From assembly GCA_046350855.1 (NCBI GenBank), contig JAXLZM010000003.1, positions 12,311 to 76,310 on the forward strand: DNA of 64,000 nucleotides, read 5' to 3'. Positions within the stretch are counted from its first letter, which is position 1. Each line of letters opens with the position of its first letter. The DNA comes from Candidatus Anderseniibacteriota bacterium. GTDB lineage: Bacteria; Patescibacteriota; JAUYIX01. Both the position numbers and the translations under genes were made by a program. The notes under the pieces were generated by a model. That model did no database searches. It was given only the letters and a program-made list of their open reading frames with translations, and was not told where the DNA came from. Positions 34,401-36,842 of the stretch are shown one piece after another.

Positions 34401-36842
34401 ATGTACACCTGTCCCATGCATCCCCAAATCCGGCAGAACCATCCGGGCACTTGTCCAATTTGCGGCATGGCGCTGGTACGTGAGGGGGCTGCGCAGACCA
34501 AACGCACGATCAAGGATTTTTTGCCGCTCATCGTGATTTTTGCGGTGATATTTGGGTTGACGGCACTGTTTTCTGGGCTGCATGAAGGCAACTCGGCGGC
34601 CGGTTTTGACTGGCTCTACGCCATGCGCTTTTTTGAAGCCTTTTTCTTTATTACCTTTAGCGCGTTTAAACTGCTTAATCTCAAAGGCTTTGTGGAGGCC
34701 TATCAAACGTATGACTTGCTCGCCAAGCGTAGCCGCGCGTACGCCTATGCCTACCCTTTTATCGAACTGCTCCTTGGTGCAGCATATTTATTTAACCAAT
34801 TTGTGCCGGTGGTGGCAGCTATCACACTGCTGCTCATGCTGATCGGGGCGATTGGAGTGGCTCGGGAGCTACGCAAAAAGCGTCAGATTAACTGCGCCTG
34901 CCTTGGTGTAGTATTTAAGTTACCAATGACCTGGGTGACCTTTATTGAAGACATCGTGATGGCCGTTATGGCAGCGATCATGCTGGTCGCGAGTATCGCG
35001 CCGACCCCGCGCGCCAGTGCCCAAACGGTCGAGGATCTGGTACGCGTGGCGGGCGCCAACCGCTACGAGACTTCGGTCGCGGTCTCTCAGCAGCTTTTTC
35101 CGGCGGCGGACTCGACCGATGGAGTGGTACTCAGTACTGGCCTCAACTTCGCGGACGCACTTGCCGGCGTCACACTCGCCCACCGGATCGATGCGCCACT
35201 GATGCTGATTGAGCCGCACCAAATCCCCGCTACCGTCTGGGATGAACTGCAACGGGTTCTGCCAGAAGACACCGAGCGCGTGGTGTATTTGCTGGGCGGT
35301 ACAAACGCAATCGATGCCAACCAAGAGGCGGTCATCCAAGACCACGGCTACGACGTGGTACGCATTGAGGGCTCGGATCGGATTAGCACGGCTCTTGCGC
35401 TCGCTGATGTTGAAAAAGCACAACGCGGCTCGGCGCCCGAGACGTACTACTTGGTCAATGGCTATCGTTTTCCGGATGCCCTCTCGATTGCACCGCGTGC
35501 CGCTATCGATGGTGATCAAGTCTTGCTAACCGGCTCGAGTAGCCTGGATAGTCGTACCCTCTCGTACCTCCTCAACAACCGTCCTCTCTCCGGCGTGGTC
35601 ACGATCATCGGCGGTGATGCCGTGGTGCCAGAGACCTTTGCCACGCAGTTGCGCGCCCAGGGCTTTACGGTAAATCGGATCTATGGCCCGACGCGCTACG
35701 CCACCTCCCGCGCGGTGGCTGACACGTTTGTGGACGTCAACGCGGGAGAACCCAGCACAATCGGTGTCGCCAGCGGTGAGAATTTTCCCGATGCGTTAGC
35801 GGCGGCGGTTCATCTAGCGGAGCAAAACGCGCCACTCCTGCTCGAGAAAAAAGATTTGTTCTTTACGGGCTGCATCGAGACCAGTGATTACATCCAGGAT
35901 CATGAGGCCACCATCGCCGACGGCTTTTTGTACGGCGGAACGGCGGTCTTTACGACCGAGGACGAGGACATGCTGGATGGCGCGATCCAAGGCACGGTTC
36001 CGTTTAACTGCGAGACGACTATTGCGGGCTGCCAAATCTTTCCCAGTGACAGCGTTTGGAACAGCAACATAAGCGCGTATCCTGTTCATCCGAACTCGGC
36101 TAATTACATCAACAGCATCATGTCCGGTCGGCAGTTTTTACATGCGGACTTTGGATCCAATCCTGACTATGGGATTCCGATCACGGTCGTGCCGAGCAGC
36201 CAGCCCCTCGTCCCGATGAGTTTTGATGTACCGAGCGAGAGCGATCCAGGTCCGTACCCGTTCCCGGCCAATGCTAAGGTAGAAGTGGGGAGCGACCATC
36301 ATGTCTTGGTGGTACAACAAGGCGCCTGTGATTTGTACGAAACCTTTGACTCAACCTTTACCAACCCAGGTTGGCATGCCTTCGCTGGTGCTAAATTTGA
36401 TTTGACCACGGGAACGCAGCGACCGGACTACTGGACTTCGGCCGACGCGGCGGGTCTGCCGATTATGCCGGGCCTGGTGCGTTATGACGAGGTTGCGAGT
36501 GGCTCGATCAATCACGCTCTGCGCTTTACGGTTAGCGAGAGCCAGCGCGCGTTTATTCACCCGGCTACGCACTATGCCAGTAGCGATACCAGTTCAAACG
36601 TACCGCCGATGGGGTTACGCCTCCGGCTCAAGGCCAGCTTTGATACCTCACCCTACTATGGCCAAGCCCGCGTGATCCTTGAGGCCCTCAAGAAGCACGG
36701 CATGTTTGTGGCCGACAATGGCAGCGACTGGTTTATTAGCGGCGAGACCGACAGCCGTTGGAACGATACCGATCTCGATCAACTCAAGGGTATCTCAGGC
36801 AACAATTTTGAGGCCATCGACACCGGGCCGCTGATTTTTTAG
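34401..36842 (+). CDS. Multidomain envelope protein: N-terminal heavy-metal-binding motif (YTCPMHP...PGTCPICGM), MauE/DoxX-like multi-TM domain, three or four CWB2 cell-wall-binding repeats, about 300-aa C-terminal domain of unknown function
   Basis: CPMHP/CPICGM twin motif as in copper-ATPase and CusB-associated HMBD, 4-5 TM helices, repeated GxNRYETS...ADAL modules of CWB2, and a C-terminal domain with no match. Confidence 0.6.
   Translation: [813 protein letters not shown]

Follow-up and report, generated by a model that had tools for sequence, protein, structure and literature searches.

Why would one bacterial gene join a heavy-metal-binding domain (HMBD), a polytopic membrane module, cell-wall-binding repeats (CWB2) and a large exported domain, and is such a gene more than an assembly error? 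The question is posed by an open reading frame (ORF) at positions 34401..36842 (+) of a 64,000-nt stretch from a Candidatus Anderseniibacteriota bacterium (GCA_046350855.1, JAXLZM010000003.1 positions 12,311-76,310, forward strand), which we call the window. Andersenbacteria are members of the Parcubacteria/Patescibacteria (candidate phyla radiation, CPR) group. The ORF starts with ATG and runs for 813 amino acids (aa) with no internal stop; its product is identical to MFO0704903.1, entered at NCBI as 'MAG: cell wall-binding repeat-containing protein [Candidatus Andersenbacteria bacterium]' (MAG, metagenome-assembled genome) on a 116.8-kb contig. The best explanation, which we hold with somewhat better than even confidence, is an inherited in-frame fusion in which the last transmembrane (TM) helix of the membrane module, TM5, replaces the signal peptide of the exported half and is most likely followed by cleavage, making the gene product a two-part polyprotein.

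A sequence-only reading of this DNA had proposed a copper-type metal-binding motif, a MauE/DoxX-like membrane region, CWB2 repeats and a further domain, in that order, and profile searches bore out both composition and order, with all three named domains above their Pfam gathering thresholds: HMBD (PF19335, aa 2-26, 34404..34478, 49.9 bits against a cut-off of 23.6, E 3e-13), MauE (PF07291, aa 73-196, 34617-34988, 68.5 bits against 27, E 9e-19) and CW_binding_2 (PF04122, three stretches, 153.7 bits against 24.9, E 1.9e-45). The HMBD shows the ligand pattern C-P-M-H...C-P-x-C-G-M (C4, H7, C18 and C21). The CWB2 repeats, previously put at three or four, are present and number exactly three by motif search and self-alignment, starting near aa 209, 319 and 425 (aa ~209-318, 319-424 and 425-540; 35025..36020, +); they are predicted to be extracytoplasmic. 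The C-terminal domain (CTD) occupies the remaining 273 aa (aa 541-813; 36021..36839, +). Among NCBIfam models, BT_3928 matched weakly over the MauE part and SlpA (NF033435) matched partially, over the CWB2 part only, at 74.3 bits against a cut-off of 650, and we rejected a clostridial S-layer SlpA identity for the protein on that basis.

The architecture is as unusual as had been claimed. Across 5.8 billion protein clusters the query alone combines HMBD, MauE and CWB2, as a singleton cluster on one MAG contig; the exact gene is missing from the contig index, and a syntenic relative in another Andersenbacteria genome (L003) has no N-terminal module. All of this would suit an artefact in which a frameshift, a lost stop codon or a chimeric assembly joined two genes, a possibility that the sequence-only reading had itself raised. 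However, a degenerate-pattern scan with a junction-spanning query (aa 120-330) matched all 211 residues at one locus, L009, on an 868,483-bp contig (JGI Ga0247787_1000001) assembled independently from a different metagenome. There, positions 3644..6082 encode an 812-aa protein with an HMBD (51.9 bits), MauE, three CWB2 stretches by Pfam and the CTD, joined at the same junction and with the frame kept open through hundreds of substitutions. Its neighbours (CYTH, radical SAM, thymidylate kinase and metallophosphoesterase genes) are unlike those in the window. The junction shows neither a vestigial second signal peptide nor a repeat, and on the strength of L009 we regard the artefact as effectively refuted. 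Two candidates for further fusions, P0001 (CTD 86% identical) and P0121 (HMBD-MauE 71% identical), both lie at contig ends and are thereby uninformative.

The two fusion proteins are 78% identical, whereas their synonymous differences are saturated (proportion of differing synonymous sites, pS, 0.66-0.86 by Nei-Gojobori counting). Nonsynonymous divergence (dN) is 0.16 for MauE, 0.21 for CWB2 and 0.11 for the CTD, giving ratios to synonymous divergence (dN/dS) of ~0.06, ~0.12 and ~0.07, which are approximate since dS is saturated; over the 30 codons of the HMBD (pS 0.86, dN 0.18) saturation leaves the ratio incomputable, although the HMBD Cys/His ligands and the downstream CxC motif are all kept in L009. 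Purifying selection thus acts on the three large modules. Two sequences that diverge at 22% of residues and yet share one junction rule out an artefact; the fusion is real, inherited and maintained in an Andersenbacteria sublineage. All four of its parts belong to families already present in databases (HMBD, MauE and CWB2 curated, the CTD family large but undescribed), and it is their combination, with two known copies, that is very rare and previously undescribed.

The two halves are normally independent, unlinked genes, as shown by their separate homologues, by synteny and by their distance where both occur on one contig. The N-terminal 210 aa match 668 proteins, most of them HMBD+MauE proteins of 190-215 aa; the best 120 of the 668 measure 141-296 aa and carry no CWB2. 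The best full-length matches after the protein itself are instead CWB2-CTD proteins with signal peptides and CWB2 as their only Pfam domain (P0242, P0243 and P0244); they measure 621-632 aa and share 58-62% identity with the query over 74-78% of its length. A stand-alone HMBD-MauE gene (P0132) and a CWB2-CTD gene (P0242) share the 1.22-Mb contig Ga0606640_0000003 but lie ~390 kb apart. P0244 (621 aa, with its own signal peptide) is the syntenic orthologue, encoded in the L003 MAG (GCA_046350905.1). The two loci share, on the left, genes for Ku, a tRNA methyltransferase, DUF1761 and GSDH followed by tRNA-Gly(tcc) and a variable segment, and on the right CWB2-CTD, YkuD, a second CWB2 protein, an AttH-like protein, a ~180-aa protein and tRNA-Gly(gcc). 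The variable segment is bounded on the left by the conserved tRNA-Gly(tcc) gene (34255..34329, +), 71 nt upstream of the fusion; it holds seven genes in L003 (AbrB/MazE-like, an ABC transporter pair, a 143-aa ORF, DsbB, DsbA-like and guanylate kinase) and in the window the HMBD-MauE coding sequence alone, which is joined in frame to the CWB2-CTD gene. All seven L003 genes are absent from the window, as is HMBD-MauE from L003.

The stretch from tRNA-Gly(tcc) to CWB2-CTD thus differs wholly between the two syntenic loci and suggests a hot spot of gene turnover. In such a setting, an HMBD-MauE gene would have landed directly upstream of the CWB2-CTD gene, after which loss of its stop codon and of the downstream signal-peptide start would probably have produced the fusion, an event that can be dated by synteny and is under selection in an organism group with minimal genomes. 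An alternative route, deletion from an ancestral order HMBD-MauE, ABC, ..., gmk, CWB2-CTD, was prompted by ABC transporter pairs downstream of P0132 and in L003; given the absences just described, L003 having no remnant of HMBD-MauE, it remains speculative. A search around the junction for att-like direct repeats of the tRNA-Gly 3' end was negative. At L007, in a Caenarcanales MAG, the HMBD-MauE gene adjoins primase and recombinase genes of a mobile element. Separately, the DsbB and DsbA-like thioredoxin genes of L003 (8072-9351, −) stand just upstream of the unfused orthologue, at the place that HMBD-MauE takes in the window, which could be coincidence or a hint of an oxidative-folding partner for an exported Cys-containing protein.

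Which side of the membrane each part would occupy follows from the membrane module (aa 37-199; 34509..34997, +), previously described as having four to five helices: the module is confirmed, and its helices number five by hydropathy, charge distribution and an AlphaFold2 model (TM1 37-62, TM2 71-92, TM3 112-130, TM4 135-158, TM5 177-199). Modelled from 62 homologues, the HMBD-MauE part (pLDDT 90.7, pTM 0.82) agrees with hydropathy in placing a β-rich HMBD (pLDDT >90) before the five helices and in leaving loop 159-176, which holds C165-A-C167 (34893..34901, +), non-helical. Lys and Arg residues total four in the N-terminal segment, three in loop 93-111 and four in loop 159-176, and none in the two other loops (63-70 and 131-134). 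The positive-inside rule therefore predicts that the HMBD and the CxC motif are cytoplasmic and that all residues past TM5 lie outside (N-in, C-out).

The junction itself is where the two gene families meet most precisely. In an alignment across it, stand-alone HMBD-MauE proteins stop 0-6 residues past ...IMLVA (aa 197), the signal peptides of the CWB2-CTD orthologues, e.g. MKNKLLIGILSLVLAIVFSVGSDIARA|APEDIVRV (the bar marking the predicted cut), align onto TM5 (34929..34997, +), and the orthologues' mature N-termini align with Q208 of the fusion; no second hydrophobic segment is present. The linker between TM5 and the first CWB2 repeat (34995..35024, +) is ~10 residues long and contains, with prolines upstream, a canonical (-3,-1) A-x-A motif, PTPR-A205-S-A207|Q208 (A205 to A207 at 35013-35021). 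This candidate site lies 6-8 residues past TM5, at the same alignment position as ARA|A, ALA|A and RGA|T in the orthologues, and an equivalent site, ...PAAAA|QT, is present in the cluster's second CWB2 protein. TM5 and this site have the form expected of a signal peptidase I substrate, a hydrophobic N-in/C-out helix with small residues at -3 and -1 no more than ~5-8 residues beyond it. The linker is the least conserved part of the fusion (42% identity to L009, dN/dS ~0.8), and ASAQ is nonetheless kept. To judge from these alignments, the complete MauE TM5 looks to have taken over the n- and h-regions of the CWB2-CTD signal peptide, and signal peptidase I probably cuts after A207.

What the membrane half would contribute is best approached through its stand-alone relatives, annotated 'MauE/DoxX family redox-associated membrane protein', which resemble it at 44-71% identity over the N-terminal 200 aa and share its five helices, CxC motif and E-D pair. 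C165, C167, D184 and M187 are invariant in 121/121 sequences, M190 (114/121), M194 (113/121) and M176 are kept in 93-96%, and E183 is invariant in a 62-sequence alignment (A2). These conserved thiolate, carboxylate and thioether ligands would line up from the cytoplasmic face along TM5. Close relatives exchange the HMBD for YHS (PF04945) or HMA (PF00403) or lack an N-terminal domain altogether. At L017 (819-4243), in a Gammaproteobacteria MAG, the gene follows those for a CsoR-type repressor, two YHS proteins and a DUF326/Csp protein, in a cluster that also encodes a protein with weak, sub-threshold YtkA/cupredoxin-like matches; at L007 (299-4091) it follows three YHS genes and a Csp gene. No copper genes were found near the stand-alone gene at two further loci (L006 and L008). 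Domain swapping, gene context and conserved residues together tie the HMBD/YHS/HMA-MauE subfamily to copper or another soft metal, and we infer that it handles copper, by translocation or membrane chaperoning, as the fusion's own copy presumably does. The fusion differs from these relatives in running on for 610 residues where they end 0-6 residues past TM5, and their copper link is one of context. Compared with the MauE of mau clusters, the founder of PF07291, it likewise passes the Pfam model and has a small polytopic membrane part, but it adds an N-terminal metal-binding domain and its relatives' context is copper rather than maturation of a TTQ enzyme. Because no mau or methylamine dehydrogenase genes were present in the scanned ORFs near the fusion or in the neighbourhoods examined for its homologues, the module is not a functional MauE sensu stricto. 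Proteins of this kind occur across phyla, and their CxC/E-D/Met-ladder signature makes them a possible uncharacterised copper-handling family.

Taken with the junction, these features suggest how the fusion may work. One 813-aa chain would be translated, leaving the HMBD in the cytoplasm as its five helices enter the membrane; TM5 would serve as an internal signal sequence and export the CWB2-CTD part, and signal peptidase I would most likely cut at ASA|Q. The ~65-kDa CWB2-CTD product would then dock non-covalently on a wall polymer and act on envelope glycan, and the ~23-kDa HMBD-MauE product of ~207 aa would keep a copper-related membrane role. On this mechanism the fusion is a variant of known things, either a polyprotein or a CWB2 wall protein whose export signal is unconventional. 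The FbcH cytochrome b-c1 precursor of Bradyrhizobium is a bacterial polyprotein cut at an internal signal sequence (a last TM helix plus an AXA site), and the two are alike in placing a polytopic membrane protein and then an exported protein in one ORF; they differ in that cleavage of the fusion is predicted and that its two products have no known functional partnership. If it holds, the fusion would be a clean natural case of the last helix of a polytopic membrane protein doing a signal peptide's job.

Several observations weigh against this explanation. The inference of cleavage draws on two fusion sequences and the (-3,-1) rule, and TM5, at 23 residues and packed in a helix bundle, is nearer in length to a signal anchor than to a cleavable h-region. 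Neither the window nor L009 has copper genes close to the fusion, and literature searches returned no papers that connect MauE/DoxX with copper or with HMBD, PF19335 appearing only in papers on the plastid copper chaperone (APE1/PCC1). Survival of the fusion to synonymous saturation in two genomic contexts could also mean that the linkage itself is selected, which would imply functional coupling. The protein might, on that view, remain uncleaved, its module passing Cu(I) outward by way of CxC, E-D and the Met ladder to metallate the CTD, or holding the enzyme at the membrane-wall interface and thereby making its activity depend on copper status. Retention of the fusion through long divergence and relocation with its modules constrained would be expected of such a protein; the CTD's invariant His, Asp and Glu residues (H104, H175, H194, D102, D152, D242 and E117) could form a metal site, and the long, bundled TM5 may disfavour access by signal peptidase. 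Yet the CTD and HMBD-MauE families are unlinked in all other genomes examined, thousands of stand-alone CTD proteins carry ordinary signal peptides, phage homologues do without most of the invariant His/Asp residues, and a linker of ~10 aa would not let an uncleaved CWB2 trimer extend deep into the wall; the AXA|Q motif is the sole conserved feature of that linker. On balance, we consider a coupled, uncleaved protein unlikely. More doubtful still is a specific form of coupling, in which the module stays attached and metallates or gates the CTD in cis at export, with the HMBD-CxC-E-D-Met ladder as a Cu(I) path. Were it true, HMBD/YHS/HMA-MauE proteins would constitute an unrecognised family of small Cu(I) translocators or membrane metallochaperones, and copper export would be coupled to wall chemistry in a CPR bacterium.

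Cysteines in the exported part raise a different possibility. The disulfide-rich small subunit of methylamine dehydrogenase depends on MauE for its maturation, and the module could by analogy be a thiol-disulfide oxidoreductase like DsbB/VKOR that aids oxidative folding of the exported part, where four cysteines (C491, C537, C544 and C643) are conserved and two, C544 and C643, are invariant in the CTD family. The 'redox-associated' annotation of MauE/DoxX proteins fits such a role, as does the Dsb pair immediately upstream of the L003 orthologue, in the variable segment that in the window contains HMBD-MauE. The module's only conserved cysteines, however, are those of the CxC motif in a K/R-rich loop predicted to be cytoplasmic, which is the wrong side; moreover, the swappable N-terminal domains are all metal binders, and the conserved neighbours of the relatives are copper genes rather than Dsb or thioredoxin genes. 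We therefore regard a redox helper as improbable.

The sequence-only reading had favoured yet another function, that the protein combines metal or redox sensing with wall anchoring, so that metal binding by the HMBD would alter the wall-bound part and regulate wall remodelling. Beyond the co-occurrence of a metal-binding domain with wall repeats and the location in an envelope cluster, nothing speaks for it. The fusion contains no kinase, cyclase, DNA-binding or other output domain, the stand-alone family is equally free of output-domain partners, the two halves are unlinked elsewhere, and signal-peptide replacement already explains the junction. With a retained signal-peptidase site and copper-handling associations added to this, the claim is unsupported, and we give a sensor very little credence.

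The exported half, which would dock on the wall whether cleaved or not, ends in a domain that had been described as belonging to no recognisable family. This is correct for curated libraries: the CTD has no match in Pfam (E <= 10), in NCBIfam (E <= 1) or among PDB sequences by sequence and profile searches, and a Foldseek search of its confident AlphaFold2 model (pLDDT 88.3, pTM 0.87) against the PDB gave a best E of 2.3. It is not correct in general, since the CTD is one of a very large family that is conserved yet unannotated and has homologues in phage tails. All 8,000 scored candidates were significant, and a profile search of 1.84 billion representatives (50%-identity clusters) yielded 13,080 with E <= 1e-3, of which 3,154 reached E <= 1e-30. 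The best matches, at 59-68% identity, come from Chloroflexota, Acidobacteriota, Dormibacterota, Eremiobacterota and others and are mostly 'hypothetical proteins' of 280-450 aa, some of which also carry dockerin or FN3. The CTD can stand at either end of a protein and in as many as three copies, and the proteins that contain it reach 2,917 aa; the seven His, Asp and Glu residues named above are invariant across the family. Among 70 multidomain members, its partners are SLH (six), FN3 (five), PKD (four), CBM_3 (three), CBM96, GDSL esterase and T9SS sorting tail (two each), and GH114 and CWB2 (one each), a set typical of secreted carbohydrate-active enzymes. The neighbourhoods of two stand-alone genes (L021 and L022) showed no conserved partners.

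Searches of viral resources provided the homology to phage proteins. Against the fold library BFVD, Foldseek returned TM-scores of 0.64-0.73 (E 1e-14 to 1e-10) for matches among which are a minor tail protein of a Gordonia phage and a phage protein bearing parallel β-helix repeats, and PHROG 17388 ('minor tail protein') matched CTD aa 13-252 at E 2.7e-5. By tblastn, the Gordonia phages Trax, Stormageddon and Gibbles align at 26-27% identity over ~85% of the domain, and the CTD family profile recovers Trax gp22 at ~E 1e-13 and Stormageddon gp18, which one depositor labelled 'glycosylhydrolase' in GenBank, at ~E 1e-12 (two-sequence database). Shared motifs include FxADxxWN, GL(V/I)RxxE, HAL, PMG and YGxxVxD. 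The phage copies keep E167, H175, the PMG motif and D242 and have no H104, D152, R178 or H194. The likeness to actinophage minor tail proteins (PHROG 17388; Trax gp22, Stormageddon gp18, Guillaume) is thus one of fold and weak sequence; the phage copies, unlike the cellular ones, are without most of the cellular invariants and are embedded in larger tail proteins, and the link is homology of one domain rather than tail-protein membership. Double-psi β-barrel glycan-active proteins (MltA/3D lytic transglycosylases, expansins, GH45 and cerato-platanins) are among the known systems set beside the CTD.

From its partners and relatives, the CTD is probably an enzyme domain active on envelope glycan, whose anchor is CWB2 in this protein and SLH, dockerin or carbohydrate-binding modules in others, and such an activity fits a neighbourhood with an M23 peptidase and an L,D-transpeptidase. 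Its size, above 13,000 cluster representatives, and its lack of a Pfam model make it a candidate for a new family of such enzymes. This family and the putative copper-handling one with its ligand ladder are arguably of broader interest than the fusion.

In its wall-binding half, the fusion resembles the Firmicutes CWB2 wall proteins (the Cwp family of Clostridioides difficile and SlpA), with three tandem CWB2 repeats and a swappable functional domain, exported and, by analogy, presumably docked on a secondary wall polymer. Modular swapping of CWB2 anchors and functional domains has been described (bioRxiv 10.1101/2025.04.02.646754). Unlike those proteins, the fusion has a CPR host, a functional domain from an unannotated family and, in place of a signal peptide, a polytopic membrane protein's final helix to drive export.

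The envelope gene cluster that the sequence-only reading had placed around the fusion is real (36897..41724), and it is syntenic in L003 except for the M23 gene, which is missing there. Pfam confirmed the M23 peptidase (36897..37826, −), the YkuD L,D-transpeptidase (37914..38648, +), the second CWB2 protein (38684..40108, +) and the AttH/CrtC-lipocalin protein (40130..41176, +). For the second CWB2 protein, the mechanically called ORF begins at GTG 38597 and overlaps YkuD; the likely true start is ATG 38684, the one already used in the sequence-only reading, which gives a protein of 474 aa with a clear signal peptide (…VVVAQPAAAA|QT). The last member (41173..41724, −), a 183-aa protein, had been labelled a 3D-domain protein, a label for which no profile library gives support (Pfam, NCBIfam, permissive thresholds). 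It is 35% identical to its L003 counterpart, and its resemblance to 3D/MltA-type proteins is at motif level only; kinship between it and the CTD was considered and rejected (hhalign probability 0.6%). The cluster and the fusion within it add to scant knowledge of how CPR bacteria build and remodel their envelopes.

Between the fusion gene and the convergent M23 gene lies a GC-rich, terminator-like hairpin with a T-run (36853..36876); a promoter scan 5' of the fusion gene returned no site. The M23 protein carries one orphan CWB2-like motif (GRNRYETA, at aa 194) within its C-terminal half, which has no Pfam match, and since a relative at L001 (18494-20443) is a 649-aa M23+CWB2 protein, the window copy may be degraded or truncated.

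Beyond the cluster, two divergent paralogues (42244-43785, −, and 43912-45354, +) match MATCAP (PF08014, metallopeptidase-like) weakly and lie beside tRNA-Gly(gcc). A DUF5939 protein with an adenylate/guanylate cyclase domain is encoded at 45426-46892 (−), and L003 also has a cyclase near its cluster. Upstream, 25972-26922 (+) encodes a protein with a T4SS-pilin-like domain. The window as a whole (1-64000) contains twelve tRNA genes, and against a background GC content of 0.55-0.57 it shows low-GC islands at about 10-12, 14-16, 42-44 and 48-50 kb; the first of the MATCAP-like paralogues (42244-43785) lies in such a low-GC stretch (0.47).

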